From: Phoronis australis
Taxonomy: Eukaryota > Animalia > Phoronida
Direction of reading: 5' to 3'
Length of the DNA stretch: 54,067 bases
Assembly (NCBI GenBank): GCA_002633005.1
Contig: NMRA01000460.1
Span: 58,672-112,738 of the forward strand
Positions 12,041 through 52,920 of the stretch are shown here, piece by piece. How positions within the stretch are numbered: position 1 is the stretch's first letter; each line of letters starts with the position of its first letter. The notes beneath the pieces are model-generated. The model had not been told where the DNA came from and made no database searches. It was given only the letters and a program-made list of their open reading frames with translations. Position numbers and translations under genes: made by a program.

Positions 12041-12117
12041 TACGTAACTTGCATTTTGTTAAGACAGCTCAATTTATATGTTGTTATGACACCTAAATCC
12101 TTGCTTTGACTTTTTAC

Positions 12118-23306: not shown

Positions 23307-23534
23307 ATGAGTCAAGCTGATCAGGATAACTCAATCTCTGGATCGCAGGACAGTCCCCTTGTGCAATACATTCTTGTGCGTTGCGATTTGCAGGAGACGA
23401 TGAAGTGGCCCGCAGGCGCCGTTATTGCGCAAGCGTGTCATGCTTGTACCGCAGCTATTCATTTAAATTATACGGATGAAGACACCAAGAAATACTTGGA
23501 TGATGTTGAGCGAATGCACAAAGTGGTTTTACAG
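23307..23534 (+). CDS. PTRHD1: PTRHD1 (PTH2-family putative peptidyl-tRNA hydrolase), coding exon 1
   Basis: MSQADQ...LVQYILVRCDL...WPAGAVIAQACHACTAAIHL...MHKVVLQ, 76 codons; ends at CAG|GCAAGT (GC donor), phase 0. Confidence 0.93.
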
Positions 23535-26999: not shown

Positions 27000-27170
27000 G
27001 TAAAAGATGAAGAGCAGTTGAGAAGCTTATCTGAAAAATTGAAGGCAGGGGGTATTCGGCATAAACTGTGGATTGAACAACCAGAGAATATTGCAACCTG
27101 TTTAGCAGTGAAACCGTCTCGTAAGAACGAAGTGCAACAGTATTTTAAAGGACTAAAACTATTCAGGTGA
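27000..27170 (+). CDS. PTRHD1: PTRHD1 coding exon 2 (protein total 132 aa)
   Basis: ttgtttTAG|GTA; VKDEEQLRSLSEKLKAGGIRHKLWIEQPENIATCLAVKPSRKNEVQQYFKGLKLFR-stop; contains the HKLWIEQPENIATC signature. Not in the ORF track. Confidence 0.95.
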   Translation, partial: VKDEEQLRSLSEKLKAGGIRHKLWIEQPENIATCLAVKPSRKNEVQQYFKGLKLFR

Positions 27171-30050: not shown

Positions 30051-30185
30051 TATTTATCTGTTTATTTCAATCAAAAGTTATCTTTTAACTGAAGGCTGGT
30101 TTATAGCGGGTTTACACAATCACTTCAGTTTACAGCACCGTTACTTCACCCAATAAAATTTTCCACTGAGAGATTTCACATTTTA

Positions 30186-30737
30186 CTAGTTTTCTTCATG
30201 CTTCACATTTGCTAACTTTAAATCATATGCTAGAAGAGATAGATCTCTTTCTGTGAAGTTGTAATGACCATCTGAATAGTGCTGTCTGAATGCTTTTCCT
30301 AAGTATTTCTCTCTTTTAAAACTTTGGAACCAGACAATGCGATCATCCCATGGATAATTTTCCGGAACAGACATTTGAGCCATGCTATCCCCATCACTAA
30401 ATATCTGTGGCCCAGGACAGCCATAGTGATCTTTACTGGCAAGATGATGCTGGGTCTGCTCCCCATTGGCTTCTCGAACAATGTTTTTGTGAACCTCGTT
30501 GCACACATGACAGCTGAAGCCGTCAATAAAGTTGATCCGATTATCGTCGTCTATACCCCATTCTCGCTTCTTCATGATATTTTTTAATTTCATGTTCGTC
30601 ACGCCAATTGTCTTGTGCTGGAGGAACTTTTCGTATTTTTCATCATCCATATCCAGGTCTTTCAGAAATGAAGCCAGGTCTTTGAATGTCTTGAAACGTT
30701 TAGCAGAGACTACTGAATTGGGGTGGGGAAGCATATC
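30186..30737 (-). CDS. FUT10: FUT10/11-like alternative terminal exon C (183 aa, ends HEEN)
   Basis: tttctgttgaCAG|GAT ATG; phase 0; DMLPHPNSVV...NFIDGFSCHVC...HYGCPGP; open to TAG. Confidence 0.88.
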   Translation of the reverse strand, partial: DMLPHPNSVVSAKRFKTFKDLASFLKDLDMDDEKYEKFLQHKTIGVTNMKLKNIMKKREWGIDDDNRINFIDGFSCHVCNEVHKNIVREANGEQTQHHLASKDHYGCPGPQIFSDGDSMAQMSVPENYPWDDRIVWFQSFKREKYLGKAFRQHYSDGHYNFTERDLSLLAYDLKLANVKHEEN

Positions 30738-31730
30738 CTGTCAACAGAAATAAAATTCACAGGAAAATGTAGTCATTTCGTATTCATAATAACGTGGTGG
30801 GGTTAATTTTGTCTCAGATACATACCCTGACAAACTGACGTGCAATATTCACTGAATATTGTAGTGTCATTATGTAATGTCATATTTGAGACAATTGCCT
30901 TGAGAATGAATTTAAATCATAGAACCTACTTGGTCTATAATGTTCAGGCACTAATTATTATGTTCGATTTCTGAAGTCCCAAGCCAGCTGTCTTGATTTC
31001 CAAATTGATTTGGTTACAGTGAACTTCAATAAGTACAATGAACTTAATATTAGAAATGTCTTGAAGGGTTTGTTATAATGCAGTTCAGAAGTGCTGAAAA
31101 TTTTGTGATTTTTTGCTGCTTTGAACTTTTAATTTCTGGTAAAACGGGTTATATGTCTTTTTAAACATCAGAATATTGATGGACATTCTTTTTTACACCA
31201 AAAACATATGAGAATATTTCTGTTACATATTTCGCTTTCAACATAACCAGTGAAACATTTTTGTACAATGCTCTTCCCCCAAGATTGGTTTTAAAAAAAG
31301 GTGGCTATGAGTCAATTGACCCAAATAGCCTCAAATCCATGGGCCAGTTTTTTTTGAACCCATAGGTCACATTCAGTCTAAGTGACCTTTTTCGAGTGGA
31401 TCAGGTGGCATTTAAATAGGGGTAAGTAGGTTATGTGATTATGGATCACTGCGATTAAAGTAAACACATTACCCTGCTGGGATCTACACTTTCCAAATAT
31501 GCTAGTCTCAATATCGCTTAAATTGTTAGTTTTGATCAGCTGCTTTGCATCATTGCTATATTAAGAGTCTAAATGTAATGCATATTATTCAAGACAAAAT
31601 CAGGCGGAATTTTGACAGTTTTAGCCTGCCCGATAACTTGAGTTAAGTAATCGGAATGTGTCAATGAAATATTTTATGTGAGAATGACCCGTGGCGCACT
31701 CCTAAAATTATCCCTGCCACACACTGCCAT

Positions 31731-32227
31731 GTTACCCCTAGAACAAGTTGCTCCTGGAATATAAGTTATTGCTAGTTTTAGTAGTAGAGTGGATGCCATT
31801 CACACCGGGGCAACTTGACTCATGCGTCCAACTTAACCAACATTATCGGGGTAGGGTAACTTGTTCTAGGACAATTGCCCCAAAGAAGTCATAGTGGGAA
31901 CACAAACCTGTACTCAAAGTGGCAGTTATTAGCAGCTGTGTCGTCAGTCGCTTGTATGCAAGTGTAATTTCTGTATGTGGCATATTTGTCATACTAAAGG
32001 TGTTGGAGTGTGTAGTCTGTAAACGACGTAAGTTAATTGATCTCTGAAGTGACGTCCACTATCTATATATTTTAAACTTGCTATTGTTGTTTTTCCCTAT
32101 GTTGTTCTTCATTGTTATACTGTGACAGTAATACTGTGGAGAGAGTGTGGTCACTTGAACCAAGACAAATTAGTATGGACGCTCATCTAGGGACAAGATG
32201 CTCTAGGGCAAATTGTTCTAGGGTTAC
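31731..32227. mobile_element. MITE-like element with imperfect TIRs
   Basis: GTTACCCCTAGAACAAGTTGC / GCAAATTGTTCTAGGGTTAC, with an internal related copy near 31855. Confidence 0.6.
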
Positions 32228-34755
32228 TCGTTATGCAGTTACCACTTTATTTCTCACAAAAAATCATGCATAATGTGGTTTCAAACAAAAACATGATTCC
32301 CTAGCAAGCACAGAAATTCTGGCAATAGGGCATATGTCAAGAAAACTGCTGAAAACGTATTTTTCAAGATGCTCCAGGTGTGTGCACCACCCATTCAGAA
32401 TTGTTTCCAGACGTTTTAAACAATAATGGGTTGTATAATCTTATGAAATACAAATCCTTTTGACATTCAAACACAAACTCATTTGTTGGAATGCAGTTTC
32501 CAGGAAGCACTACATAATGTTTATGGTAAGTTAACATAACGATGGAGAAAAAAATTCCAGATTTGACCATTTCACTTTCTCAGAATCAAACTTAAAAGAT
32601 TCTTCATTTAAAACTGGGTAAATTTTTGGCATGTCACACAGGGGATTATAAAATACAACTTGATAATATTGAGTTTTTATATAGCATGCATCAAGATTGC
32701 TGTAGATATTATTACTATTGAATAAAAAATGCAAAAATAAACACCAACGTGTGAACCCTTAAAATTTTTATTATGAGATTGAAACAATTAAGAATAGATT
32801 TTATCTAAATATTTCTAAGATACATTTCTGTTAATTTTCATTTCAATTAAGATTTTACTAATAATTATATATTTAATGAAATAACAACACATTTGAAGGA
32901 TAAGTTTAAATGGCACTTACCAGTTATAAACAAGGACTTAAATACACGAAACAGTCTAACCTACGAAAAGTCTCCGAACAAAATGTCCCCGATATCACCT
33001 AAAAAGTTGTATTGACCATTTTATCACAGCAGCAAATCAGATGTGTATGTAACATTTTAGTCAGATCTCAACACAGAAAATAATGCCATCATGATGTTGG
33101 CAATCTACATTACTTGGAAAATTTGAAAATATCCTTTCAAACTCTGCTAAACAAGCAAGCGTGGCCTACCCTTTTAGCGAATTACACGGCAACTGTGGTA
33201 AAAGACCACCTACCAAGGACCATAGTTCAACATGTGACATTTGGAGCATGACTTTTTAGTTGATTCCTACGTTTAACTTGGAAGATTGACACCAATGATG
33301 CATTAGCAGGTGACAGAACGAGTATTGGTGGAAATCATTAAAACAGGTTTAAGTATCTTCTAAGTAAAAATACATTCAATTCTAAGAAAATTTTAAGACC
33401 TTTCAATTTCAGAGTATGTAACTCTTCATTAAGTAACACCGTGAATCAACAATATGTGCACAAGGTGACTTTCATGCACGACCACTGATACTTTTATCCT
33501 CTGGCTGAAACGTGGAACAACACCCTCCGAGATAACGTAATATAGACCACTTTGGTGCCACCCAGATGTCAGACATCGCTATTCACGACCTAAGCAGTGA
33601 GATTCTGCAGAAACCATTACCCCTAACCACGAAGCAAGGAGACAATGTCATTACATCATAGTAAAAAACAAGATAATCTTATAAGAAACGAAAAAAGGAG
33701 AAAGGCATCAGTGGTCATGTAATAAAACAAAGTTAGACCCAATCCCTCAGTGATATGGACCTTGGGAGACCAATATTGGTCACGAGTAATACTTGTCTCA
33801 CTCGGGCATATGACTTAATATCTACCTCAAGATAAGTGTATATCTCCGCCAAGATCTGTCTATATCTCCCTCAGGGTAAGTCTTTAATTTGTAAATACTC
33901 TGTAGCATTCAGCAACTAGTGCACACAGTTTGAGGTAATTCTTCTGTTAAGTCGTACAAAATTATACAATTTTTCAGAGACATGGGGTGACAGAGAAAAA
34001 ATGCACACAATGTATTATACCAATAAACCATCACCAAAACTTGAAGTTGAACAAACTTTTAATATATAGGCAAGATGTCATACAGCAAAAATTTTCAGAT
34101 CTATATAGTAATGCGTGTTCATGTTAAGACTAAACAATGACAACACGTTTGTACTAAACAAAATCACAATATTTAAAAAATAAATGAAAAAATGCAAAAT
34201 TTCGTGTATGCCTGAAAGCTATATTACCACAGCCCAGGAGAGTGTGTATTTAAGTAATGTATTCCACAAGTCACAGTGAAATGTCTATTTATGTACTGAT
34301 CACCTAAAGGCAACAAACAAATGCAACAGCAGCAGTTCTTTCTGACATTAATACACTTACATTTTGAGCAGTTACAGAGTTCACGATTATCCACCAAATA
34401 CTAAAAATATGATTGACGTAAATGGATTAAGCATAAGTGAATAACATATTTCAAGTTCCTTTCCTCACTCAAAAGCATAGTTATTCATGACAGCATCACA
34501 CACCACTGTAGTTCAGGCTAAAAATCTGACTACGGTAATAAAAAACCTGATTGCTGGTTGGTCAAAAAATCATAGGTGGATAACACGATAGCTAAAATTA
34601 CATAGACTAAATGACTATATTTAACTACAGAGCATGTACCAGGAATGTATAATTCTACATAAAAATTAATAAAAAATTAGTAAATACACCACAGTTAATC
34701 AATCAACATGATCCAAACCTACAACCAAATTACAAGCAAAGAAACTGTGGCTAGC

Positions 34756-34889
34756 CTCGATTCACTCTACCTGTTCAGCAGGATCACCAGACTAAGACAT
34801 CTGATTAGATAGCCACTACTGACTTCCAGGTTACAGACCAATCAATGTGTTATCCACTCTATCCCACTGACCTTGTAGAGTGAATTGAG
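34756..34889. mobile_element. Small MITE-like inverted-repeat element
   Basis: CTCGATTCACTCTAC / GTAGAGTGAATTGAG, 15 bp with one mismatch. Confidence 0.55.
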
Positions 34890-36093
34890 AGAAACCAGTG
34901 AGAATGAGTAATTTAAGAACCCATCCCAATAAAATGACAATTGAATCCAAACGTTATCAGATCAAAATGGTTGGCCTATTGGTTGCCATGCACATCCTCA
35001 AAAACAAACGAGATATTTAGTTCCTATGCAACACTCTGAATACGGTAACGACTATTAGTAATTACCAAACTTGTATACAGCAAAAGTGAACACGAAAGAG
35101 TAACTATAAAAATAACAATGAGCATGAAGGAGTAATTTTTTTTATTTAGTACATGATCATTTAAAGGAACTAATTCTTTTACAGTTAGATGAATAGGAAC
35201 ATTGAAAGTACGAGAAGTTTTCAAAACTAATGGCTACCATATCCACATACGCTAAACTGACATTCCTATGCTCAAGAAATTACAGCAGCAGTAAAATTTA
35301 TACCAAATGTGTCAATCTGTTTATTTAGAAAAGTGGAAATTCAAAAAGCTATTAGTTTCAGAGGTTTGACCATTGCCCAGTAAAAGGCAACAGCTAATTC
35401 CCCATGTGTTCTCTTTGAGACCTTTTGTTTACTATTCAAAATGTCTTGTTTCATTCTTGATGGTGTAAAGACTCAAGCTCTATTGCTGGTTTCTCTATTC
35501 ATGCAGTTTATTTTGCCTCCGAGCCCAGCGCATCAGAAGACTCCTGGGGTCTTGATTGTAACCATAAGTTAATTTATGTATTCACAGATATAATGGCATG
35601 CAGCTGCTGTAACCTAATATTCACCAATAGGGGGAACTGGCTAACTGCACGGAATCAAATATGTGTACAATACACCAGTTTTTGCAGCAGCAGGTCTTAG
35701 GATTTTGCCTTATGGTGGTTTTGCTGGTGGTGGTCCCGTTTTGCGTTGACATTTTTTTCTGGTCATGACCTATGAGAGCCGGATTAAACCCCTTAACCTC
35801 CCATAGACCTGCCACTGCCATGATTGTACATGAGACTGCATCTGGTTGAACACATGATAAGCTATGTTTGTCGACCTTGATAGAAAACAACAGGTGGTGA
35901 TCACACGACCTGACAACATCAACAACTTGAAGTTTCTCCATAGCTATAATGTTAAGAAGGAAGACACCTAATTTCCTCAACACCAACATATAACACTCTA
36001 ATTCTGCAACACTAAATTGAAATGTTCAAAAGAACTACTGGGTAATGCATGAGGACAGCTATCGGTCAACATTTTCACCGTAACAAGTTGCTC

Positions 36094-36642
36094 TCAACTT
36101 TCATCATGTATTACAATTCCAGACTTTAAATCAAGTGCTAGGTGAGATAAATCTTCTTCAGTGAACTCATAACGGCCATCTAAAAAATACTTTTTAAATG
36201 CCTTGGCAAAGTATTTGTCTTTCTCAAAAACATGGGCCCAGAAGTGGTGGTCTTCATCTTCAGTGTTTTCTTGGGCGAGGACTTGAGCCATGTTATCCCC
36301 GTCAAATACATGTGGCCCCGGGCAACCATAATGATCTACTGAAGCGTGATGTGGCACGGTTGCCTTTCCGTTAGCTTCTCTACGAAGGTTCTTGTGAATT
36401 TCTTGGCAAACGTGACATGCAAAACCGTCAATGAAATTCATTTGGTCAAAATCATTTATTTGCCATTTCCGATTATCCATTTTTTTTCTCAAGTTCTTGT
36501 TTGTAACTCCAACCTGCTTGTGCTGAAGGAACTTGTCATACTTAGCATCATCCTTATCCAGATCTTCTAGATGCAAAGCTAGTTCTTTGAAAGTGCCAAA
36601 CTGGTTGGCAAAAACTACTGTGTTTGGATGGGGCAGCATATC
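36094..36642 (-). CDS. FUT10: FUT10/11-like alternative terminal exon B (182 aa, ends HDES)
   Basis: ttctcttcgCAG|GAT ATG; phase 0; DMLPHPNTVV...NFIDGFACHVC...HYGCPGP; open to TGA. Confidence 0.88.
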   Translation of the reverse strand, partial: DMLPHPNTVVFANQFGTFKELALHLEDLDKDDAKYDKFLQHKQVGVTNKNLRKKMDNRKWQINDFDQMNFIDGFACHVCQEIHKNLRREANGKATVPHHASVDHYGCPGPHVFDGDNMAQVLAQENTEDEDHHFWAHVFEKDKYFAKAFKKYFLDGRYEFTEEDLSHLALDLKSGIVIHDES

Positions 36643-37224
36643 CTGCGAAGAGAATAAATTACTCCTAAAAAGTGTGACATTAACTTTCTGTATTTCTTCA
36701 CATAAATGTATGAGATAGAATGACATACAGAAAGTGTTCGTACAGAAAGCGTTAACTTAAGCAACAAGATTATTCATACTGACAGACCTGGGATGTCGTA
36801 TGGGTGGGCCCAACTATAATCTTTGAATGAAAAACATTCAGGTAAAGCCAATTGGATAAAGGCATGGCATTTTCCCTCATCGAGACTGTAGGGTCTCCTG
36901 TCTCCCAGAGTCCACCAAAGGTATACAAAAATCATTTGTCTTGAGGTGATACAGGCAGCTAGTTACTTTCATGAAATTTCCCAGGAAATACCACCGAACT
37001 ACACCCCACGTCTTTTCACAATTTGTGTACTTTATAACTTTATGATATTTCGCTAACACTGCTGTTGACAAGAAGTAGATTAATTACAAGTGGCATGTTT
37101 TCTGTTAAACACACCATGTGTAAACAAAACTAATTGTGTTGTCTTTGGACAAAAAATTCTGTACAATAATTGTCCACTTATGTAGCACACTCGCCTCATT
37201 TCGCACACCCAAAATTGCTTTTAA

Positions 37225-38827
37225 AGGAGAATGCCACCTGATTTAATTAGTCTTTTTTACCGTCTTAATCAGTCTATATCCACATCGCCTCTTGTACAGT
37301 CCACCTCACCTTGTCAACCTGTGAGGAAGGTGAGAAATGACGCAGCAATGTCAGTGGTTCGTCTGTAGAGAGAAAACCGCTATATTGCGGTGCATCGTTC
37401 CCGCTTTTTGGAGCTACGAAGCTGCGAAGAAAGCGGACATATCATTTTTTCGACTTTCTCGCGAGCCCGAAATGCTTAGGAAGTGGCTCGCGGTAGTGAA
37501 GAATGAAAGGTACGCTGTTAATAGCAAGTATGAGGCCGTGAAACATCTCCGTGTCCGTGGACGGCATTTCGTCGACAGTGATTTCTCTGACATATAACGG
37601 CTTACCGTTGCCTGTGCATGTTCACGGCGCCTCTCTAGTATTTCTTAATCAGTGTATTCCGGTTCGAACTGATAGCCTGTGAAACCTAACGATACGACCC
37701 ATGAAGTCTTCATCACCTGAGCTCTTGACTAAGTCGGAATTGGCATGAAGCGAGTTGCCATATAGACGTTTATTATTCAGCACTCTGTTTCAAAATGAAT
37801 TATTCTCATCCTAACCAATGCTTATATAAAAATGAAACAAGGTCTGTCTCATTAGATACAATTTGTACAGTATTCGTGAGTGCAAATGTCGAGAAGCCAG
37901 CAATGAATAAACCACTGCGTTACCGGCTTTTGATGCCTGCAATAAAGGTAATTGACTGGGCACTGAGACCGTGTGAGTGCACGCTAATTCAGCGTTTGCT
38001 GACAGGAAGCTGTTGTGAAACAATTACTCGATTTTATATGCTATGGTCACATGTTAGGGGAATCTTTTTTAGAAATACAAATACATTATTCAAATCATTG
38101 TTACTGTACAACCTTTGCCCTGACAGTCTGAGGAATTGGTACCCGACGTCGCGGCCCCGACAAGTAAATAGATTTTCAGTTTTGTTGCTAATTCACATAA
38201 ATAATTACGCGCACATTATTTCTTTGGCTCACTATTATTAGTCTTTTGGTGACTGGAGGTTTAGTTTCCAACTCAAGCTGGTTTACGTTCGTGCCAGTCC
38301 TGGCGTCCGCGACGGGCCTGATTGGGTTCCGAGCCACTGGCCGGGATAACAAGCGTTTTTTGTGTTTAGAACTCAAAAAAATCACTAGTTTAAACAACAC
38401 AGATCTATGTATTCCTGTCTGTATTTCACTGAAGAATATTTCGAATTTATCTCCGAACAGACCCCAAACTCATGCTACGGACCTTGGTAAATTGGCCTGC
38501 TGAACTTTGAAGGTTACAGTGTGTCCAAATACCACTAAATCCGTAACAGCGAAATAAAACAACACGTTTTTATAAGAACTCGGTGTATTTTTAAGGGTTT
38601 TACATCGAAGTTTGATGATCTATTGGTGATGAATTCAAGCGTAAGCTGACACCAGTAACCCGTGTTGTGAACTGCTGAACAGACTGCGTGTGAAACCAAT
38701 GACGTCATTGGATAATTTCAACACCTCCGTCTGCCGTCAGGTAACGCAACTGAATGTGCCGTTGTCGAGTAGAACTACTCGATCTAAATTGATACAAAAT
38801 AGGTTGTTTTTTGGGTGGCATTCTCCT
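37225..38827. mobile_element. Kolobok-like non-autonomous DNA transposon, 1603 bp
   Basis: Perfect 14-bp TIR AGGAGAATGCCACC / GGTGGCATTCTCCT; TTAA on both sides (37221-37224, 38828-38831); RR...YY termini; internal THAP remnant. Confidence 0.85.
37337..37597 (+). pseudogene. Degenerate THAP domain (transposase N-terminal remnant)
   Basis: CIVPAF...ISFFRLSREPEMLRKWLAVVK...LRVRGRHFVDSDF; THAP F/W/HF pattern present, but two zinc-ligand Cys positions read F and R, and an early stop follows. Confidence 0.75.
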
Positions 38828-39560
38828 TTAAGTAAATATGCTTATGCGCGACGCCCCGTCCTGCGAGGTGAGTTTCCAGATTTTGGTGATCGGGAACTCA
38901 GGTTTCACCCGTATCGTTATCAATTTGACAGTGATTGAAGAGGAGAGAGTTGGTGAACCAATGTTAATATAGTCCAGCGCACTCATTGTCTGCATTGATC
39001 TGATAAGGTCACACAATCCAGCAATTATGTTTTACACAGTGTGCCTGACACAAACTGATATTTAAAAAATACTATTTGCAAACAACTTTCAACAAATGAT
39101 GTGACGAATATTTTTTTATGAAATACTACCACCAAAAAAAATTCAAAGGGAGAAAAAGGGTTGACTTTTAGAGAAAGTAGATTTAAGTTTCACCTGCCGA
39201 TTCCTTTTTGCGACTGTTAGCTTTGACCCACTTAACCACAGCAATTTGCACTAAAACAATAGGCGTGTTAGCCAAATTTCTCCTAGTGTGATTCTAGATC
39301 AGGTTGTGATATTCAAGGAATGGTACATAACGAAACAGACACTCTGAACAATATTTATTATTCGAAAATAACAATGAGTCCCAGAAATGAGGATTACTAT
39401 GTATGTACGTATTTATGCCCATGTGGCTATCTTCCAACCTGACTATCGTATATTCAGAATAATTTTTTCTTTGAAAAGAGCATAAGATTGGAAGTAAGTG
39501 CATGGGCCTAAATACAAGCATGTATGGTACAGGAACAAATTTAATAATAACAACAAAAAT

Positions 39561-41289
39561 AACAAGAGCACCGCGGAGCGTTGAAATGGGCCCACGACAG
39601 CACCGCAAAAAGCACGCTTCTATGGGTGTTTTAGTATCATACAAATGGCCATTAGAAGGCACAAAATCCAAATTGAGAAGATGGTGCCGTTTCTGTAATA
39701 CACAACTATTTGCCAAATTTCATGAAAAAGCCAAGGAGCTCCTAAAACAAAACAACTGACACTATGGAGCACAGCTATACTGCGATTATTCTAACTCATC
39801 CTCATCTGTTGCCAAATTTCACAAAGACCATTCAAAGGGTTAAGGAGAAACAGGTGTAGACGCAAAAAAGCAAATTGCCCTAGGGGGTGCCAACACAGCC
39901 GAAACCATCTGAAAATTAACGTCAAAAGGGGTCTTTGCATCAGGGAGACAACCATCAATTTTCATAACGATCCTGAGTGGTTTGGCATATTGAGAGGCAT
40001 ACATCACAAATACGCAAAACTTTTTAAATACCTGCCAAGTGGCACAGAAAACATCAGGTCTGCCCGAAAATGGGAAGGCGTTGTTGTCTCCTTAATACCA
40101 GTGGCGGATTTAGAGGGAGGCAAAGGGGGCCATGACCCCCCTAAAATTCTCCCAAATTTCATTGGGCAGTTCGGAGGTGCAAAATCCTGGCTAATATGCT
40201 GCCCTAGCCCCCACTAACTCAAAAATCCTGGATCCGCCCCTGAATACAGACTTATTTGCCAAATTTCATCGAATAACATTAATGAAATCCGAAGATACAG
40301 ACTCAAATGTAAAAAAAACATTTTGCCACTAGGGGCACAGTGATACTTCAATCAGTTCGATAATAGTTATCATTTGTCGTCGGCTCCATAAGAAACATCT
40401 TTCAAATTTGACAAAGTTCCTTTGAAGGGTTTAAGGAGATTTGGCTACAGACGCAAATAAAACCAAATTGCCACTAGGAGGCGACAAAGTAGTCAGACCC
40501 GTCCAAAGTCAACATCAGTCGAGGCGTAAATTTTCCTTCTAAGGATCCTTTCTGCAGTATGGCAGATAGAAAGGCGATGCCAGAAAACGGATGCAAAAAT
40601 ATCAAAAATGGCCACCAGGTGGCATAGAAAACATAAGAAATCTGTCCAAAAATGGGAAGGTGTTGTCTCCTTAATAAAAACCTATTTGACGAATTTCATG
40701 AAAATACATTGATGAACTCTGAAGACACAAAGGCACAGTGGTATTCGGACCAGTTCGACACTCGTTATGGTTCGTCGTCGCCTCCAGAGCAATACATCTT
40801 TCAAATATCATTAAGTTCCTTCAAACAGTTAAGGAGATTCAGCTCTAAATGCAAAAAAATTCTCACTAGGGGGCGACACAGAAATCAGAACCATCCAACA
40901 GTCATCATCAGTTGTGGACTTCTCATCAGGATCACAATTTTCATAATGATCCTTTGAGCGGTATGGCAGATAGAGAGGTGGATGCCAGAAAACGGACACA
41001 AAAATAGCCACAACGTGGCATAGAATCTGTTGAAATGGTGTCATCGCCTTCTTATTAAAAACATATTTGCCAAGTTTCATGAAAATCCATCAAGGAACTC
41101 TTAAGAAACAGAGGCAAATGTAAAAAACTAAATTTGCCATTAGTAGACATAGCAGTATTCGGATCTGTCCGAAACTCGTCGTCATCCGTTGTGAACCTGC
41201 AACGGGTTTAGGAGATGCAGCAGCGGATGCCTTATGCCCAAACAGAGATGACGGCAATATGCACGCACCCACACGTGGGCACATAAAAA
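39561..41289. mobile_element. Full-length non-autonomous Helentron/DINE-like element with ~11 internal monomers
   Basis: AACAAGAG start, hairpin CACCGC-GGA-GCGTTG, subterminal IR ATGGGCCCACG (39586-39596) / CGTGGGCACAT (41274-41284), terminal AAAAA; no TSD apart from the A-rich context. Confidence 0.78.
40099..40242. mobile_element. 144-bp MITE nested in the Helentron-like array, 5-bp TSD
   Basis: TIR CAGTGGCGGAT / ATCCGCCCCTG; AATAC duplicated at 40094-40098 and 40243-40247; removal restores the host monomer (compare 14893-14930). Confidence 0.88.
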
Positions 41290-44200
41290 CATCATTGCAT
41301 TCACATTTCAATACAATAACATCCTTGCATTTCTATGCCTTTTTAGGTCACGCTCATTCGGTACAAAATTCAGCATTTCCATACGACGTTATATGTATAC
41401 TTTATGTAGTAATGTACAAAATAACGTCACACGGAAATGGAGTCTTCGTATCGAATGAGCATGGTTTAAGTGGAGTTCTTATTGAATGTTGGAAAATTAA
41501 CAATTTGCTTATTTTCTATTACTGTGTGACATGAACATCAGTGCCTCATGCAGCACATCAAATGTAAACAACAGGTGTAACAGTAGATAAAATAACACGA
41601 AACAACAAACTAACTATGAACACTGGAGATCTGTTTCATGAAAATTGACCTGTGACTTGAGCCAGAAATTTCATCTTATGCTCCACACATATATTTCTGA
41701 CAAATATTCCAATTTCATTTCAGAAAAGTACGGAATCCTAAAGAATATACACACACTTTCATATTAATTAAAAATAATTTGCATGAAATATTGCTACAAA
41801 CTACGACGGGCTAAAAATTATACTACAAAAAATACACAATATAGAAAAAAGGAATTTTTGATTACCGGTACTCATTTGGTTTGGTTTAAATGTCAAATTA
41901 ACTCGTAAAATTTAAGGTACTTTTGCGAAAAATATCAGTATTGTACGTACCGTATGCAAAAACTAGGCACTTAAAGCCGAAATTCTTGCATTGTTTTGGA
42001 CACTGATGAATAAAAACTAAAAATGGAAGGTTTCAGCGAAATCCATCAATTCTTTTTCAAGAACTTGAGTTCAAGTTACGTTTGCTGAAGCCGAGAAAAA
42101 GCCGAAAATTTCTTAAGTTGTAAAAATCTCAAGGTTTTTGCTTAACTATTTGGTGAAAACTTGTTTATGGTTAATTCAACCTATATGTAATTATCTTGCT
42201 GTTTATTTCAACATTTAATAGCAGTGTCAACTGAATTTGCAGAGCGTAATTAAGTTAATTGTCACTAAAACATTTTGATGCAGTAAGTCGGGTTTCAAAC
42301 TACGCAAACTAGGTCAGAGGAGGAGTTAACGTAAGTAGGTCAACAGTGCATTGTGGTACACAACATATGATAACTGTGGGAATTTGAATCAATCAACAAA
42401 TCAACTACAAATTGGAGAATAGAAATCAATTATATGTGAACTCGAGATTGAGCAAAACATCAGACTGAATGAATTTCGGCGAGGGAGGAAAAACTCTCAG
42501 GATCAGAAGTTTTTGTCTTTCTTTCTGTGGGGCATCTTTCTATGCTATGTACACCTCGTTGACCCAATATTATGACAACTCTGTGAATGAAAGGTCTATG
42601 AATTGTGGGTACATATGGAACTGCATATGCCTGGTGGGAGATTTGATTTGAATGACAACTCTGTAGCCTTTGAACTTCGACAAAATTCCACGTGGATGAA
42701 GGTTGTGGTTTCACAAAATCTTTTTTCCTCCCTAAATGTTATATATTTTGTATTTGAAGTTCCCTGAGAATGAATGGAGGGTATTTTGCAAGACGTGGAA
42801 TATTGCAAAAACACCAATTTTTGAGAATAAAAAGACAACCTTAAGTTGCTCATCATGAAACAGACTGCTGTTAAAATTGATGAAAACAAAGTTTTATGTC
42901 CAGATGATTAAGCTGAAGTTTTGGAGACACATTAATATATTTACAGTAAATGGTTAAGTTCACCAATTTCTGATGAAACTCTTTCTTAATCTACACTGGT
43001 ATCAAAACGGTAGCAAAACGGCCTGCGCACCTCTATGTCTTTAGTATCATGCAATAAAATAAAAAATAAAATAAAATAAAACACATAATGAATATCATAA
43101 ATACACAGAACAAACAACGTACAATATGGTGTTACTGCATAGAACTTTTTTGTATACATGACAAGTTTATCCAACTCTTAGAGTTGGAATTTCAGCCCAC
43201 AGCACAGCAGTAAAACTTCAATGGCATTACAAGATCGAATACAGTAATGCGGCCAAGAAAAAGTTGTAAAAAGCAAGATACCGGCAAATAACATGAGAAA
43301 CTCCAATGGTGAGAAAATAAGGCCATGAAAGTGCTTGATGAATAATGCAGCATTGAGGGTAAACGGTGCCAGATTCAAGTTTCACTGTGTACTTCAGGAC
43401 TGCCATATTGCACTTACGAAATACGCACTCAACAAAATGGCAAAGTACACCTTCTCTGTTTGAAAATAAGATTCATGGAAGTTTATCAACCATGTTATAA
43501 GTTACAACACCATGAAGCAGCAGTTTAGACTGAAGTAGACGTAATATCCTTTCATATACAACTAAAAAAATCATACCATTTTATCATAACAGCTTATTTT
43601 TACCAATTCTTTCGAATGTTGCTTTAGTATTTCCTCAGTCATGGATTGGCTGATGTAAAAGAAGATTGAACTTCTCAAGTATAAACAACGTAACTCCCTA
43701 CTCTGCATTGTCCCAACACTAACAAAAAAGTAAACGCTAGTTGACTACGCATCTACAGTACAAGACAAAAGTAACCAGACAAAATACCATTTTCAGTTCC
43801 CGTCACTGGCTAATTCTGTTGATAGCAAAAAGGACTAGCAACAACAACTACAGCGGCAAAATCCTAATTAAAAACAATTGTTACCTTATTAACTAACCTG
43901 TTACTTCTTCTTCATTCTCAGTCATGAGAAGACATCTCTGAAGATGAATTTGGCTTCCGCACAGCTGCCATGGCTGGAAATTCTTGGCCATTATGTCTGA
44001 TTACTTTTGGCTTACATTCTACCTCACTTAGCAATTGTGACTGGGCTGCAGGGGTGGTATTCCAGAAGGGGAGGAAGTGAAAGACAGGGGCGAGGGTTGA
44101 ACTACACAAGTCAGGTGCTCAACATTAATTTGCTGCATCGACATCATTGAAGGTGAATATAACCATGTGAGTGGACTGACACTGGTTATAATTCTGTAAG

Positions 44201-44561
44201 CTCTGTTTGGCTGTTCTATTTGTTAACTAGCAGTTAACACTTGATTGAAATGACCTATGGGGTCAGGACACTGATTATGTAATTTTTACCACAGGATATT
44301 TGAGAACATTCTAGTTGGTTCTTCGCCAATTTCTAACCCCTTCTTGAAATTTACCCATTAACTCAGCTCATACATCTTTTCGTTAAACTGGACTGAAAAA
44401 GAACCATGCCGTGGACAGTTCTAGAGCTAGCATATGTTTGTAGAGTGATTGGGCAGATTACAGAAAGTTCCAGTAGGTAATTTTGAATTGGCAAAAAGTT
44501 CTAGAAAAATTGAAACTGACTACAAATACACAGACACACCTTACATTGCTTCAAAAATCCT

Positions 44562-45125
44562 TCAATAAAGTCCACGTTCAACATTCCTTTCAAAAATGTC
44601 TAGCCAACGATTATTTGGAAAATCCTTAAGAATCTTTGGTCTGGCCATCTCAAGGAGTTCAAAGTATGTGAAGTTCTTCCCCAAGCCCCTGTCATACAAA
44701 TGTCTAAACGCTTCTGCCACATACTTGTACCACAGCCATTCCTGTGCAAACCAGTCATCCTCATTTTGTTCTAAAGAGTCACCAGTTTCACCCAAAAAAG
44801 TTTTTGGCATTGGACAGCCATAATGATGCACCGGTGTTATTCTGACTGATTTCTTGTCCGTTGACATTTTTTGCTCTTTGTGGACTAGCTTACACAAGTG
44901 ACACGGGTACGTATTAAACAAGTTGTTTCCTGAGCCAAGTATTGACCATTCACGATGTGCCAGCTCAGACTTTAGCCTAGAATTTGTGACTCCAGTTGTC
45001 TTGAACTTAAGGTACTGATTGTAGAGACCATCGTCTGAGTTCAGTCTAAGCAAGTACGTAGCTAGCTCTTTGAATGTGCGAAACTCCTTAGCTGAGATTA
45101 CTGAGTGGGGGCTGGGGTAGTAGTC
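44562..45125 (-). CDS. FUT10: FUT10/11-like alternative terminal exon A (187 aa, most divergent)
   Basis: ttccctgttttaTAG|GAC; phase 0; DYYPSPHSVISAKEFRTFKELATYLLRLNSDD...CHLC...HYGCPMP; open to TGA. Confidence 0.88.
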   Translation of the reverse strand, partial: DYYPSPHSVISAKEFRTFKELATYLLRLNSDDGLYNQYLKFKTTGVTNSRLKSELAHREWSILGSGNNLFNTYPCHLCKLVHKEQKMSTDKKSVRITPVHHYGCPMPKTFLGETGDSLEQNEDDWFAQEWLWYKYVAEAFRHLYDRGLGKNFTYFELLEMARPKILKDFPNNRWLDIFERNVERGLY

Positions 45126-45489
45126 CTATAAAACAGGGAAAGTCAGTCTTATACTCCTGTTTCGTAATATTTGAACTGAATGAGCACCAGCAACAGAGAT
45201 GTGTTAGCAAAGCATCAAAGTAATTAGGCAAACAATAACCACAATATAATGATAGTTTCTATAAATTATTTCTAGGATGTGGAGTGCTAATAGGAATGTT
45301 TAGCATGACATCATTTTGACATCACCATGACGTTTTGGACCCAGTGTGACGGCATGCCAAACTGTGCCATCTACTGCCATGACACGACACTAAATATCTG
45401 GATAATTACACGGATTATCCTTTATTGAGAAATTGTGAAGTGGGAGGATAAAAACATATTTCAGACTTTTAAAGTCTTAATCCATCTGA

Positions 45490-46720
45490 AAATAGGAAGG
45501 TGTTCTCGTCTCCTGAATAGAATATATCTACCACATTTCATGGAAATTTGTTAAGAAACTCTGAAGATAAAGACAAACGTAAAAAAAATGCCACTAGGCG
45601 GCACAGAGATAGTCAGATCTATCCAAAACTTATCGACACCTGTTGTAAGCAATAGAACACCACTCGCTAAATTTCACACAGATCTTGAAAGGGGTTAAGG
45701 AAATAAAGCCTCTGAGGCAAAAAAAAAATGCCACTAGGGGACACAAGAAACCAACATCAGCTGTGCTATTAACAGGAAGGAATCTGCCAATTTTCATAAT
45801 GATCTTTCAAGCAGTTTGGTGGACAGAACGGTAGACACCAAACGACAAAATTTTAAGTAATAACAAGAGCAATGCCCACCGGATGCATCGGATATAGCGC
45901 AGATATAAGGGATGATTACTATTTTCTAAATTCCCAATAAATGGAACAATGCTAGTAAAGATGAAATAGCCTCTAGGAAGAGCATAACAAGTCTGCAATG
46001 CTCTCCTCAATAGGAACACACTTGTGAAGACCGTAAAAAAATTGAAACAGGCACTGGGGGCACAACGGTAGTCAGATATGTCCAAACGTTGTCATCTGAC
46101 ATCAAGTTCACAGAATGTATCAAATAAACACAGAAAAATTAGGAACCCCAACTGGGAATCGAATCACAGGTCTCTAGATTGCTGGTCTAGTGCTCTTACC
46201 ACTGAGGACCTGATATCATTGCAATTACTGTTTACAGCCGAGTGTTATGTCATACATTCCATGAGCGGCCTTACACCTTTTTCACAGGATATTTGAATAA
46301 TTATATACCATGAGAAAGTTCACAGAAATACACTTTGCAAATTTCGTTCATGCCATTCTAACCATGATAGGAACATATCTTCAAAATTTTATGAACATAG
46401 ATACAGGGGTTTGGAGACACGGCAGTGGACGTCAGGTGGACGGACAGAGCTGATGGCATAAAAATGGCCACTAGCATGCGCAGAGTACGTCGACTCTTTA
46501 CTAGAAACCATTTGCCAAATTTCATGATAATCATGTTGAGGAACTCAGTAGATATTGAGGAGTACTTGAAGAAAACATCAATTGCCAATAGGGGATGCCG
46601 CAGTAGTTGTCCAGCAGCAGCCATGCTCTTCTCAACAGAAACCAAACTGACCTTGGTAGACATTGGGACAGATACATGCAAACAAAACTGGCAAGAGGGT
46701 TGCACCACAGTTTTTTAACC
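45490..46720. repeat. Composite array of ~140-bp monomers with an internal AACAAGAGC end (45862) and a tRNA-derived insertion
   Basis: Same monomer motifs as 39561-41289; boundaries approximate. Confidence 0.65.
46115..46310 (-). repeat. Second locus of the tRNA-derived repeat
   Basis: AGGAACCCCAACT...ACAGGTCTCTA..TTGCTGGTCTAGTGCTCTTACCACTGAG...CAATTACTGTTT.CAGCC matches 29688-29795. Confidence 0.78.
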
Positions 46721-49016
46721 TTATGGAAAATTAACTTCAGCTTTGTGCCATTCAATAAATTTCCATAATAATCTTTTGAGAAACAGATGTCAAAATCTCA
46801 AAAGATAGAAACAAAATCCAAAAAAGGCAGGTAACCTACGAATCTTGCGCCATCAGTATGATGACCATAACCTGTAAAAGGCAAGCTACTGACCCCTCAG
46901 GTGTTGGCGTTCTACAGACTTATATTAGAAGCAACCAAATCAGCATGTGCCATTAAGACAAAGACAATCAGCTGGATGTATTTATGCATGAACAAGTCAC
47001 TGACAGGCTAATAACAATGTAGATATTTGTTTGTCACAAACAATCAACCAAAATCCAGTTACTGCAACTTCTAATCAGATTCGTGTTAAAATTGTGAAAA
47101 CACTTGATGACTAACTTTAACCGAATTGACGAGTCAAAAGTTCTCGCAAAAGTGAAAACATTGTGACATCATTAATGCTAGACAAGTTGAACAGAGCGTG
47201 GACAATGATTTAACTTAATGCCTAAATGCAAGCAACAACTGAGTGTGGATTTTTGGAAGTTTTAAAGCATAGGCTTTGTTAAGAGTATAAATAAACCCTA
47301 TAAATTGTTAAAACCATCATCAATTATTTAGTGTTTCAAAAAATCTATGGCGATATGGCTACCAAATGACACAGTTGAGCCAATTGTTATATGCAAATAA
47401 TGGACCCATGAAAAAACTCCAAGTGACACGAACTAAAATCAGTAGCACTCTGAAGCATATAAAGAGTACAAGCAAGCTATTGTGTTATAAGGAAACCCCA
47501 AAATCCCCGCCATGACAGCTGGGTGGAAGACAAATTCATCGACAGTATAGCCTTGCCGAATGACGGAGAATAGAAGGGAATAAACAAGAGACTGAGCCTT
47601 TCTATCATTAGAATTTTGACGCTGTAATAGTAATTACCAGTCATTTTAGCAGTTACTTAGGCGTCATGATGAGGGAAAAGGTATTTTGTCTGAATACTTT
47701 TGTCATATACATTGTCTCACTCTGGTTGAAGTAAAAATAGATCCAATCCAAGACTGACATTAGGTACATTTTCAAAGGCATCATGAGAATGCCAACATCT
47801 TGATCAAACTTCTTCAGATTTAAGGCTCTTCAGATTGTCATTATTAACAGAGCGCGTTTTTTTTTTGTAAAAAAAGTTGCAACTTCTATTTCCCAAAAAT
47901 CGTGTGAAGATAAATGATGGTTTATTTGTGAACACCTCTGAAAAATCCGGCACAGTAATTAAGGTTGAGACCCAAGGAAATAAATGCCTCAGTTTCACGC
48001 CATAGATACTATTAAATACTACACAGTCACTGTTTACTTAATCAATGAAAGGCACTGTTGGTCAGTAGGGAGTTAGAGTAAAGCTGAAGCAATCCCATAG
48101 GGACATCGAATAGCTTCATTATCAGCACAATTTTGTCTTTTTAATCATACCCTAGTAAAACCATAAAATCAATTATATTTTGCAAATCTTCGCCTAAAAC
48201 TCTTTGTGCATAAAAAAGTATTTCAGAAATTTACAATCAGGTGACCATGTTTTTTCAAAGACCGCATCAACTACTACACGAGCGAAAATTCATGCGTAAA
48301 ACGAGCGAAATCTGCTTCAGTAGCCTAAGAGTCAAAAAACAAAGTGTCCAGGATTTACTATCAAAGCTAGGCAACAAAAAATTTAACCCAATGAAGATTT
48401 TCAAATTTTAACTATTAATTTAAGTTTTTGTTTTTGACAACTGAGATGTCATGCTAATGCCAACCAACAATATTCTCAGACGTGCTCAAATACAGAGGCA
48501 GACTTCACAAAATTTGTGTAAAAAATTTGAAGTGTGTGGAAAAATCTACGTTGCTAAGGAAAGACAGTCAAATAACTACAAGAATCCAGCATTGACCGAA
48601 CACTCATTCGAAAAATGTATGGTTTCACAACCGTTGAGAACAAATTTATGAAGGTGCATTATACACCTATTTAGCTTCAATGATGAATTCAACCGAAGCC
48701 ATAGGCAATGTGCACATGCACCACTTTCAAATTCATAATTTTAGAGTTGGCCAAACCGAATGAACTCTTCAGTGTTTTCTCGAGAAGTTGATGGTTTCTA
48801 TGTTCTTGTTGGCAATGAAAATATAATCCTATCAAGGTAAGGAATATCACGAGACAGAGTTCTTTTACAAATGGAAAAGGTCTAATTTGATTTTAGATCG
48901 CTAAATGGGGTGAAACACAGCTTTATGCAAAATATTTTAAGAGCTGTTGCCCTTAGTAACAAAGGTGTCAAATTGCCTTTACAACCGCAAATAACAAATG
49001 TCAACAACTGTCTCAC

Positions 49017-49191
49017 CTTCAGGGTGTCGGGTGCGTAAACGATGGGCACTGAGCCCAAATGCAGAGGTCGCCAGAACTTTTCTGTGATGTAATCTTCACA
49101 TAGCGCATTTTCTATGGTAATGGTGAATTTATATTTGGCCATTAGCTTGTAAAAATCATCATGGTCCATGCCTTCCAGAGGGTTAACCAAA
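49017..49191 (-). CDS. FUT10: FUT10/11-like shared coding exon 4 (GT10 motif)
   Basis: tttCAG|T...AAG|GTGAGA; 175 nt, phase 2-0; YKFTITIENALCEDYITEKFWRPLHLGSVPIVY is the alpha-1,3-FucT (GT10) motif. Confidence 0.93.
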
Positions 49192-49256
49192 CTGAAATTG
49201 GAAAGGGTCACGTCGACCAAATGATATGCAGTCTTAAATAAAGAAAATTTGTAGCA

Positions 49257-49450
49257 GCAACAGTGTACCCATGATCAACAGTGTACCCGCGATCAACAGT
49301 GTACCTACGATCAACAATGTACTTATGATCAACAGTGCACCCACGATCAACAGTGTACATACCATCAACAGTGTACCCACGATCAACAGAGTACTTATTA
49401 CCAACAGGGTACCCATGATAAACAGTGTACCCTTCATCAGCAGCGTGTAC
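49257..49450. repeat. 18-bp minisatellite, ~10-11 copies
   Basis: Unit close to CAACAGTGTACCCACGAT; it generates the repetitive ORFs on both strands. Confidence 0.92.
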
Positions 49451-50056
49451 TCAGGATCGACAACCCTGCAATTTTTGATGGAACCAATGTTGAACAATCT
49501 TACCAGTTACACTGAATGATGTTCAAAGGCAAGGACACAAACAGCCAGTACTATGTATGTTCCATAATGTTTACTGAACTACATCTGGGCAAAATCCTGC
49601 TTTTTGATGGCGAGTGGTAACAAGTTGAAGCAGCAGGGAAAGCTGGTGAATGGGAAGTTTCCATTTTGGAAAATTCAAAGATTTGGAACAGAAATGTGCA
49701 TTATATAGTAACGAAAATACTTAATTGTTATAGTTAACGTAATTAAATTACAACAAGAAAATCCCAATGACAACTAGACATACATTGAGCTATGGGGTGT
49801 TCATTGTGGGCAAAGTAGACACACCTTTACCCAAGATGTCGATCATCAAGACATTTAGGGTAATGCTAAAACAATTTGTATCCTACCCAGCTTTGAGACC
49901 AATCATCTGAGACCACGTGTGATACTCAGAGACCATAATAATGGCAATTTTGTAATTAATACTGAAGTATTGTTTGAAAAAAATACATCAATCTATAACA
50001 ATGTCCTAGTGAACGTCAGATATGTTGAGTTCATCAGCCATATTAAAACCACTCAC

Positions 50057-50466
50057 TGCTCTGGTAGATCCTTGTTGTGTACACATTTCCCATAGGAGTC
50101 AATGGGAATGTATTTCATCAACTTCTTCACAAACATGTCACGGTCGCTGGGTGCCCCACAGTCACTCTGCACGTAGACAATGGGAGCCAATCCAAGCTCT
50201 TTTTGGTAACGATTCTTGTCTTCTGTCGATACGACATACTTTTTGCTCTCCAGAAACTCGATACTGGAGAGCCATTGTGTGGTAAGGGGATAGTCCGACC
50301 AGCGTCTAAATGTGGCAGTGTGGTTGAACAGTGTTACAATCTCTTCAAAGGAGAACAAGTAGACATTTTTGGGAGATTCCTCGTGAAGTAATGCCCACTC
50401 GTGGTGGGGCTGGCGAGGCAGTGGAAGATCATGAAGCTTGAAGTCGGTGCCATACCAGAGGAACAC
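50057..50466 (-). CDS. FUT10: FUT10/11-like shared coding exon 3
   Basis: ttttcTAG|GTG...CA|GTGAGT; 410 nt, phase 0-2; YGTDF, LPLPR, HEESPKN, YVQSDC..PSDRD, DSYGKC..NKDLP are FUT10/11 hallmarks. Confidence 0.95.
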
Positions 50467-51532
50467 CTAGAAAAATAAAAAGAAACAGTCAATCACGCAC
50501 TTATGTAAAGTATATATATATTTTGGACATAAACGCATGGGCCTTGATATGAAAACATGCAGAATTTTTTAATACACTGTATTACAAAATTAGTAAAACA
50601 TGGCCTGCATTGAAGATACACAAATATGTCCTGCTTACATAAACCATGATTCATCTGTACATTAAATTTATACAATTGCTCTCTCTTGCTCCCATTCGTC
50701 TGTTCCCCTTCCCTCCAACTCTTTTTGCGATGCACCATTATGCAGGCTCTTCCCCTGGTGTCTCCAGCGTGGGCGTGGACCAACAGGAGTTGTAACACAA
50801 CTTACCATGTAAGTGTCCAGTAATAACGAACCAGAACCCCAGAACAATTATGCAAAAGTATTAATTACATCAGCTGCCTTGAAGTGTCAAAGACAATACA
50901 GCAACACATAAGTCACTGAACGTCAGCTGCCAGTAACTTGGAATTAAATTTGTAATCAGTTATGGGCAGCTTTTTTCATCTTCTTTTGATCGAGGTACTA
51001 ATAGAGTAGGGCACTGCTTAAAATACAGTACATGGTGCATTAGTATGCACCCAGACAAATGAGTTCATTCAACAGTTTGTTATGATATGCAAGATGAACA
51101 AGAATACACAACAGTATCTAATCAGCAGACTGACACTACAAGCTGTAAGGCTAGTAAAGTTCATCTTCCCTGAAGACACAACTGGTTTCATGTTGCAGGT
51201 GGGAAAGAACAGCTGTAGATCACCAGAGGCTTAATGTTGAACTACAAGATAAGTTCATATTCAACTCGGCTAAACTAAGGAGATGAGCAAAAGCACTCGC
51301 AAAAAATGCCAGATTTGTCCATGGAATTAAAACTGAACATATACTCAGACTTCACATTGATATTTTTGACAGAAACATGAATTTTTAAATAATAACTCAC
51401 AACATGTAAAGTATTCCACTTGCAATTACTAAACATCTCAGTTTAAAAGCAAGAATCAGAAAAATCAAGTTGTGAAAATTTGCAAAGCTGGTAAATGATA
51501 AGAAGGTGATTTTTGAGTTTTGTAATTTTTAC

Positions 51533-51766
51533 CTTCATTTGTGGATGATTAGCAAACTTTCGATCAATGGTCATGAAACACTCAACATCGCCGCATTGTT
51601 TGATGGCGCCCTTTTCCCCAGTAAATCCGGTCCACCACAAGAGAATTGGCACTTCGATGTCGGGCCGAAAGGAGTTATTGACAGGTGTGGCCCTATTAGG
51701 TCGGAGTTTCAAGGTATTTTTAAACTTTCTCTTCGGACTGCCACTAAGGCTGTAGGAAATGATACA
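51533..51766 (-). CDS. FUT10: FUT10/11-like shared coding exon 2
   Basis: attcCAG|TGT...AAG|GTAAAA; 234 nt, phase 0-0; PILLWWTGFTGEKGAIKQCGDVECFMTIDR, closer to my recollection of FUT10 than FUT11. Confidence 0.9.
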
Positions 51767-52848
51767 CTGGAATATAAAAAAACATGAAAAAATAGATTAG
51801 TTTTGTGGTTTGGCACATCTCAGGTTGGATTGCATATATGCCTATAAAACTTTAAATACAACAACATCTCAAAGTAAAAAATAACCAGCTTCAAACTGGA
51901 CTAAATTACAGAAAAAAATCACAATCTATATTATAGGCAATTCCGTATGAACTAGTTGGTGCTAATAAGCAAATGCCTGCAGAAAGCTGTTTATCAATAC
52001 GGGGACGCTTGTTAGTCAATGGTCCCATGTGACTACTTGAACACATATATTTGCACAGAAAAGACTGAATATACTTAGGTAGTACCATTTCACCACAGAG
52101 GACACTACATTGTAAATTTGACACGGAATTGTTTCCAACTGTGTGTTGTTTAAGTATAGTCGATGGCAATAGTCACTTAAAGGGGTCCCGGATTTTGAGA
52201 ACCAGTTTTTCAGTGAAGAAAACTGGTTCTCAAAATGCAGAACCCTCGTCAGTGGCTATTGCCAAAGCGATGATCAAGGTATGTAGTCTAACATTAATGT
52301 TTCAGGTGTTTGGTACAATGGAACATGGCCCCATCAAATAATAAAGAGGAAATCAAAACCAAAAAACAGGAAAAATCCTCATTAAAAGAGCTAAATTCCA
52401 AGCTCTGAGAAATCATCCAGAAACGCTCTCACACAACGTGACTTAGATGTTTTAGTCAGTGTGAGGCATAATTTGCCGAAAAGCTTCCGGCATATGAAGC
52501 TCTTATAGGATCTAGTCGGCTAGAGATGGTGGTCACTGTCTATCGTTTGCCTAGGCAATGACCATCGCCTCTGTTGGCCCGAAGCCTTGCTTGTTCACCA
52601 CTTTTGACTTTGAAACTCGTAGGCGCTAAACAGGCGTGTTGGTCTACGATCGCAACATGTTAAGCCAATCCCATGAATAGCGACGAGCTCAGGTCATTTG
52701 GTGACGGCGCCGTCAAGCCTTTTATGTGCCGAGGATTTTGTCTGGGGTACACAGTGCACGCTTCTTCGTTCACTTAGGCCTTATACTAGCCCTAAGCTAA
52801 TGTGGTTATCATCAAGTTATTGTCCAAACGACTGTCTTAACAACTCAC

Positions 52849-52920
52849 GTAAGTAACGTAGCAAAGCACCAATCCCAGTGCATATTTAAGAAGTCTCACG
52901 ACCATCCCATAGCCTGCCAT
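52849..52920 (-). CDS. FUT10: FUT10/11-like first coding exon (type II signal anchor)
   Basis: MAGYGMVVRLLKYALGLVLCYVTY|GTGAGT, phase 0, continuing as CIISYSL in the next exon; candidate acceptor ttttCAG at 52949-52951. Confidence 0.78.

Follow-up and report, generated by a model that had tools for sequence, protein, structure and literature searches.

A Phoronis australis FUT10/POFUT3 gene with three tandem homologous last exons and a predicted choice of C-terminal arms

The DNA analyzed here, referred to as the window, is a stretch of 54,067 nucleotides (nt) from Phoronis australis contig NMRA01000460.1 (positions 58,672 to 112,738, assembly GCA_002633005.1). Its minus strand carries a FUT10/POFUT3 gene (POFUT, protein O-fucosyltransferase) made up of four constant coding exons followed by three homologous last exons, called A, B, and C. 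Coding exon 1 (52849..52920, 72 nt) contains the ATG and the first half of the N-terminal membrane anchor, seen as a single hydrophobic peak of 1.76 at residues 10 to 28, and exon 2 (51533..51766, 234 nt) encodes the remaining anchor, the stem, and the start of the N-terminal domain of the GT-B fold (63.6 bits with the family hidden Markov model [HMM]). Exon 3 (50057..50466, 410 nt) encodes the WYGTD and HEESPKN motifs, PF17039, and the start of PF00852, and exon 4 (49017..49191, 175 nt) encodes the GT10 donor-binding motif and ends at the common phase-0 donor at 49017. These exons sum to 891 nt, or 297 codons, and the introns are GT-AG throughout. Last exons A (44562..45125, 187 codons plus stop), B (36094..36642, 182 codons plus stop), and C (30186..30737, 183 codons plus stop) each begin behind an AG that falls at the same D-x-x-P codon, and their frames run unbroken to their own stops, giving products of 484, 479, and 480 amino acids (aa), respectively. 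On the minus strand from 49016 to 28000, no other frame of at least 150 codons follows an AG, and since a convergent PTH2-family gene lies beyond C, the last-exon cluster ends at C. The exon coordinates, phase-0 donor, frames, and product lengths all agree with an original prediction made from this sequence alone.

A second copy or remnant of exons 1 to 4 was not found in the window by tblastn, whose best stray match to the constant part (42904-42725, E value of 0.17) was recovered by neither HMM nor DNA searches and was set aside as chance. Family HMMs built from homologues for exons 2 to 4 gave a best stray score of 0.0 bits in the same window, and sensitive blastn and nhmmer searches with exons 1 to 4 gave a best stray E value of 0.03 at about position 2400, far outside the gene. 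As had been anticipated, no copies of the 5' exons lie between the last exons, and the sole visible front end is the upstream exons 1 to 4. The acceptor tracts of A, B, and C are modest (60 to 70% pyrimidine, versus 65 to 85% for exons 2 to 4), and in B the AG-free zone is the shortest (17 nt), with an in-frame upstream AG at 36687. A short tandem repeat with a unit of about 20 nt lies just upstream of the exon 4 acceptor (49252-49462). Just before the start codon, at 52948-52900 on the minus strand, lie a tract resembling an acceptor and a short upstream ATG that is out of frame, and a non-coding first exon is suggested in the CpG-rich region at 53 to 54 kb.

The gene belongs to the GT10 family, as predicted, and phylogenetic analysis narrowed the earlier FUT10/11 assignment to FUT10 (POFUT3). 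PF17039 was detected in exon 3 and PF00852 in exons 3, 4, A, B, and C, all over the cut-off. The constant part grouped with FUT10 and not FUT11 (98 in the Shimodaira-Hasegawa-like approximate likelihood ratio test [SH-aLRT]), and so did the last exons (support, 100/99), while the gene sat loosely among spiralian FUT10s (SH-aLRT of 94 for the constant part and 93 for the last exons); the trees used 68, 25, 42, and 27 rows, most fetched proteins being left out. The constant part lies on a short branch (0.25). It retains YGTD, with the leading F replaced by W, whereas FYGTD is present in 27 of 27 other FUT10 rows; FYGTD is described as a FUT10 motif replacing the lactosamine-acceptor motif (PMC11949838). 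A homologue protein search gave 459 matches, and among the best 120, which were listed, exon 3 was at most 67% identical to homologues, with no close relative there. Human FUT10/POFUT3 and FUT11/POFUT4 are described with the same GT-B GT10 enzyme, anchor, YGTD, donor motif, and cysteine-tied extension (PMC11949838; bioRxiv 10.64898/2026.05.13.724420; PMC11990869), and protein O-fucosyltransferase activity of the products of this gene, acting on folded EMI or EMI-like domains in the endoplasmic reticulum, is accordingly a prediction from family membership. Compared with human FUT10, the phoronid gene has WYGTD in place of FYGTD, and its exon A is without NFIDGF and has an added tail helix. The substrate of Platynereis Fut10 is stated to be unknown in an annelid study (PMC12669781).

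The three last exons bear the marks of selection as protein-coding sequence. B and C are 57% identical, whereas A is 35% identical to B and 39% to C, in line with the expectation that B and C would share about half their residues and that A would be more diverged. Comparison of B with C gave 0.29 nonsynonymous (dN) and 1.64 synonymous (dS) substitutions per site, a dN/dS ratio not near 1, as foreseen for long-term purifying selection. Identity by codon position was 0.78/0.74/0.51, and the proportion of nonsynonymous differences (pN) reached that of synonymous differences (pS) in 0 of 500 resamples, while DNA likeness between B and C ended about 40 nt into the upstream intron. For A versus B or C, pS was saturated (0.76 to 0.77) and pN was 0.45. 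In substitution-only simulations of neutral decay (2,000 draws each), a copy stayed open with a probability of 0.06 to 0.12 at 0.1 changes per site and of 0.002 to 0.012 at 0.3 changes per site. Furthermore, of 35 positions that are conserved across 27 FUT10 rows, A retains 26 and B and C retain 28 each, and the CxxC and HYGCP motifs are kept in all three exons. The sequence comparison thus indicates that B and C are under purifying selection, and the dN/dS ratio, open frames, and conserved positions together argue that A, B, and C have long been maintained as protein-coding exons.

B and C appear canonical-like and sister to one another, B retaining NFIDGF, and exon A appears to represent a conserved, derived subtype. 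When 1.84 billion protein representatives were searched with a profile, 318 matches were obtained, and among the best 150, which were listed, five A-type proteins (P0175, P0254, P0220, P0257, and P0193) resemble exon A in being without NFIDGF, in carrying AF(R/M/L)(H/Y) and (N/K)(W/F)TY motifs, and in having a longer tail. They are 30 to 38% identical to exon A and are all fragments of 176 to 220 aa, which may be alternative exons or ends of separate genes; none of the five is full length, yet 50 of 144 new representatives have at least 300 aa. Two of them, P0175 and P0254, share the tail of A closely, and a profile of this pair, run on 271 proteins, scored the A tail at 71 bits, Lingula FUT10 at 22.9, and C at 5.0. 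The first 40 residues of P0254 resemble a read-through intron ending at the same exon boundary. A search of the ESM Atlas with the A tail gave no usable match. Earlier trees without the A-type proteins had united A, B, and C in one clade (81/93, unstarred, and 88); when these proteins were added, A joined them (90/88, unstarred; bootstrap not fully settled) and B grouped with C (100/99), and a single local clade of A, B, and C, having lost its support, was dropped. The approximately unbiased (AU) test did not reject that clade (P value, 0.12), and in a smaller set it rejected neither A with Lingula (P value, 0.53) nor A with two bivalve paralogues (P value, 0.48). Because the tail is common to A and the A-type proteins, an old split between A-type and canonical exons is the better reading, with A as an older, derived, conserved class and B and C as canonical-like copies. 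The divergence of A claimed originally therefore stands, while its description as simply a local copy does not. In an AlphaFold model of exon A alone (predicted local distance difference test [pLDDT] score, 78.7), both helices of the C-terminal extension are kept and a third is placed at 173-183.

To locate the swapped segment on the fold, we used Lingula FUT10 (P0035) as modeled by AlphaFold (109-row alignment; pLDDT, 92.8). Residues 75 to 417 of this model match human FUT9 (Z score, 21.1; root mean square deviation, 4.3; 282 residues aligned), and the match stops at 417 of 479. The exon boundary maps to Lingula D309, so the last exon encodes the final third of the GT-B fold together with the CxxC helix, HYGCP, and all of the 418-479 extension; beyond CxxC and HYGCP, each of A, B, and C has 74 to 82 more residues. 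In the swap that had been predicted for the C-terminal 40% or so, the exon carries an extension predicted to contact substrate. This extension is described as unique to FUT10/11 and held by an extra disulfide, and by predicted structure it appears to contact the EMI substrate and possibly to determine specificity (Hao 2025, PMC11949838). Differences in the extension are also one proposed explanation of a substrate preference for POFUT3 over POFUT4 (bioRxiv 10.64898/2026.05.13.724420), the contact in both sources being derived from predicted structures. In the phoronid gene, the extension is the most divergent part (A/B, 23%; A/C, 25%; B/C, 49% identity), while the GT-B part of the last exon is 36 to 63% alike among A, B, and C. 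The extreme C termini differ as well: B ends in HDES (36097-36108) and C in HEEN (30189-30200), both of which resemble worn HDEL/KDEL signals, and A ends in RGLY. HDEL/KDEL ends occur in several of the fetched invertebrate homologues (for example, HDEL in P0174 and KDEL in P0190), and judging from these termini, exon choice might alter retrieval to the endoplasmic reticulum.

Each last exon is followed by a possible poly(A) signal. The first AATAAA lies 2,354 nt past the stop of A (42202..42207, with an ATTAAA 12 nt earlier), 581 nt past that of B (35507..35512), and 119 nt past that of C (30061..30066), such hexamers being common in AT-rich DNA. A donor-like GTAAG occurs on the minus strand at 44544, 18 nt past the A stop; if it were used, A could borrow the 3' end of B or C, which fits its distant AATAAA. 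Copies of a tRNA-like repeat of the short interspersed nuclear element (SINE) type lie at 46314-46116, 29870-29663, and 30060-29990, and of these the one following C lies in opposite orientation to the intron 4 copy and starts just past the AATAAA of C. An internal promoter before B was considered and rejected, the CpG-rich stretch at 37 to 39 kb coinciding with a 1.6-kb transposon-like element; a further CpG-rich stretch lies at 41 to 42 kb.

A candidate RNA structure surrounds exon A. In the window, 47710-47501 in intron 4 forms an inverted match with 43982-43758 (228 columns, 66%; E value, 4e-19), and as RNA this pairing would enclose exon A together with its acceptor. The intron 4 arm (47488..47710), an inverted repeat of about 210 nt, contains a candidate docking core at 47547-47488, and the complementary arm (43758..43990) starts about 570 nt after the A stop. 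Mismatches in the arms favor G-U on the transcribed strand (14 versus 5; P value, 0.03, or 0.09 after base composition), and no further full copy of the arms was found in the window. The window holds 12 inverted pairs at an E value of <0.001, and an old repeat pair explains the match around A equally well. The best partner of the 60-nt docking core lies 572 nt after the A stop; the second best on the transcribed strand is a weaker candidate (35507..35553) in which pairing at 35553-35512, 541 nt after the B stop, reaches the AATAAA at 35512-35507. This post-B pairing was equaled in 2 of 85 other 1.2-kb blocks, in 1 of 300 local shuffles, and in 3 of 300 dock shuffles, and in a coarser scan 0 of 74 block shuffles were as good. 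It is weakened by the post hoc choice of the core from five windows, and after local folding 6 of 1,185 windows were better, so that it is suggestive only. No partner of the docking core was found after C (-34.0, versus a block mean of -34.4), and post-A and post-B sequences showed no homology beyond that of shuffles (110 of 200 as good). PGRP-LC-like selectors adjoining the acceptors were likewise not seen when the first 800 nt of intron 4 were compared with the 400 nt preceding each of B and C, where about 70% of the 136 control pairs did as well, and an Rfam scan of 28000-54067 gave only two sub-threshold hairpin matches. Both pairings may be chance or repeat relics.

The boundary before the last exon recurs elsewhere. 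Among 74 metagenome loci, 39 had a last-exon match, and at least 9 of these 39 were interrupted at the same exon boundary, at which the Batillaria FUT10 model also breaks; comparison of these sequences indicates that the boundary is an old intron position. In the public Batillaria model (P0001), whose exon boundaries are the same, the exon 3-4 block is repeated, as in a duplicated or mis-merged FUT10. An initial metagenome scan with A, B, and C patterns confirmed 0 of 66 candidates.

Collectively, these findings point to alternative last-exon choice, by which one POFUT3 gene probably makes three enzymes, the use of all three junctions being our reading of the sequence. The common donor at 49017 would be spliced to the A, B, or C acceptor, yielding enzymes with a constant anchor and donor-binding motif and different C-terminal arms. 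Given use of all junctions, it is reasonably likely that the three enzymes differ in substrate preference, the arm swap changing which folded protein domain is fucosylated. How the distal exons are reached is a more tentative matter: possibly, a site in intron 4 pairs behind A and loops A out of the pre-mRNA, this pairing between the intron and the 3' untranslated region helping exon choice. That such pairing also masks the poly(A) signal of B seems unlikely. A broader version, which we consider somewhat unlikely, is an old spiralian system in which an A-type last exon is an alternative to the canonical one in POFUT3, providing a switchable substrate arm chosen through a docking site; the A-type arm would then probably serve an unknown acceptor domain, and docking-site pairing behind B would loop out both A and B and cover the AATAAA of B. 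The POFUT3/4 activity was assigned in 2025, and the idea that the extension picks the substrate comes from structure predictions. Were the proposal true, the gene would be a natural swap experiment, with three arms on one core allowing a direct test of the substrate-arm idea. The A-type arm, conserved across distant animals but present in none of the full-length proteins fetched, may point to an enzyme form that has escaped annotation and uses a different acceptor, and the inverted repeat around A offers a testable route to the distal last exons.

Several observations weigh against this proposal. Ordinary orthologues, too, conserve the extension poorly (mean, 26%), so its divergence alone is no proof of new specificity, and its supposed role in substrate contact comes from AlphaFold predictions in the papers cited above. 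Relative to the family, the constant part is altered at three near-invariant sites, F119W, G303A, and S304P (Lingula numbering), and the first AATAAA of A lies 2.35 kb from its stop. No pair with a near-identical core and a divergent tail was found among 124 fetched homologues (65 pairs with an exact 30-mer; 80 cuttable at the junction), the products of the window itself were absent among the protein-search matches listed (best identity, about 70%), and a second last exon was seen in 0 of 39 metagenome loci, of which only 8 have at least 5 kb downstream. Finally, tandem duplication of the entire FUT10 gene is frequent in this region of the tree, as in Saccostrea and Owenia.

Among the alternatives, a two-way switch between A and one of B and C, with the third exon rarely used or newly decaying, is improbable. 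The 17-nt AG-free zone and upstream AG of the B acceptor would suit it, as would RNA-pairing evidence that is strong only around A, but B and C each keep 28 of 35 conserved positions, are open, and have an AATAAA nearby. Slightly less probable is a relic origin, in which two of the three last exons (B and C, or another pair) recently lost the 5' exons of whole-gene duplicates and only one junction is now used. The tandem paralogues of Saccostrea and Owenia offer a precedent, A groups with a separate subtype and not with B and C, as a separate paralogue would, and dN/dS records past, not present, selection. However, this history calls for two recent and clean deletions, with exons 2 to 4 gone without a trace and both acceptors spared at the same codon, and frames decay fast, with a chance of about 0.1 that B and C would both be open at 0.05 changes per site. 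Very improbable is an assembly artefact that collapsed or dropped the near-identical 5' halves of three tandem genes, since the window contains no N, last exons at most 57% alike would require 5' halves homogenized to near identity, and likeness between the introns preceding B and C extends over only about 40 nt.

Alternative last-exon choice of this kind has known counterparts. The Drosophila genes pip, PGRP-LC, and CG42235 are described as likewise joining common 5' exons to a single cassette out of a tandem series of homologous 3' cassettes (PMC6191721, PMC9013439); pip also encodes a transferase, a sulfotransferase, and cassette choice in Drosophila is reported to proceed through competing RNA pairing. 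The cassettes described there are multi-exon, whereas the phoronid cassette is a single exon encoding part of the fold and the substrate arm. The candidate partners in the phoronid gene follow the stop of the skipped exon, kilobases from the next acceptor, whereas the PGRP-LC selectors adjoin acceptors. In humans, two C-terminal arms come from two genes; the phoronid gene holds three arms in one gene. A glycosyltransferase of constant/variable design, whose variable exon sets the acceptor site, is also described (PMC9013439). The original prediction had named UGT1A as the model, and the constant/variable likeness holds, but the 3' variable regions of Drosophila pip and PGRP-LC are closer. The glycosyltransferase of that constant/variable description is presumably vertebrate UGT1A, which is a mirror image of the phoronid gene, with promoter choice of first exons in place of splice and poly(A) choice of last exons. 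A full-text literature search returned no report of duplicated last exons in FUT10/11, subscription journals falling mostly outside the search, and the available portion of the review PMC11990869 does not mention 'isoform'. The gene design is therefore already known, and the FUT10/11 instance, with its conserved A-type class and candidate RNA switch, is probably new.

The remaining features of the window flank or interrupt the gene. A two-exon PTH2-family gene (23113-23525 and 27003-27170, plus strand), which we take to be PTRHD1-like, converges on the FUT10 gene, and its intron appears to start with GC, not GT. Farther away, the minus strand at about 16620-10300 carries exons for a membrane or secreted protein; its MANEC/KIAA0319-N domain lies at 12433-12119, and one exon, at 10683-10300, is EGF-like and rich in cysteine. 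The 1.6-kb CpG-rich element between A and B (37221-38831) has perfect 18-bp terminal inverted repeats starting with TTAA, and its appearance is that of a young non-autonomous DNA transposon. Copies of a dispersed repeat family, each several hundred bases long, 58 to 70% alike, and all in one orientation, occur at 8600-15100, 39560-41190, and 45480-46600.

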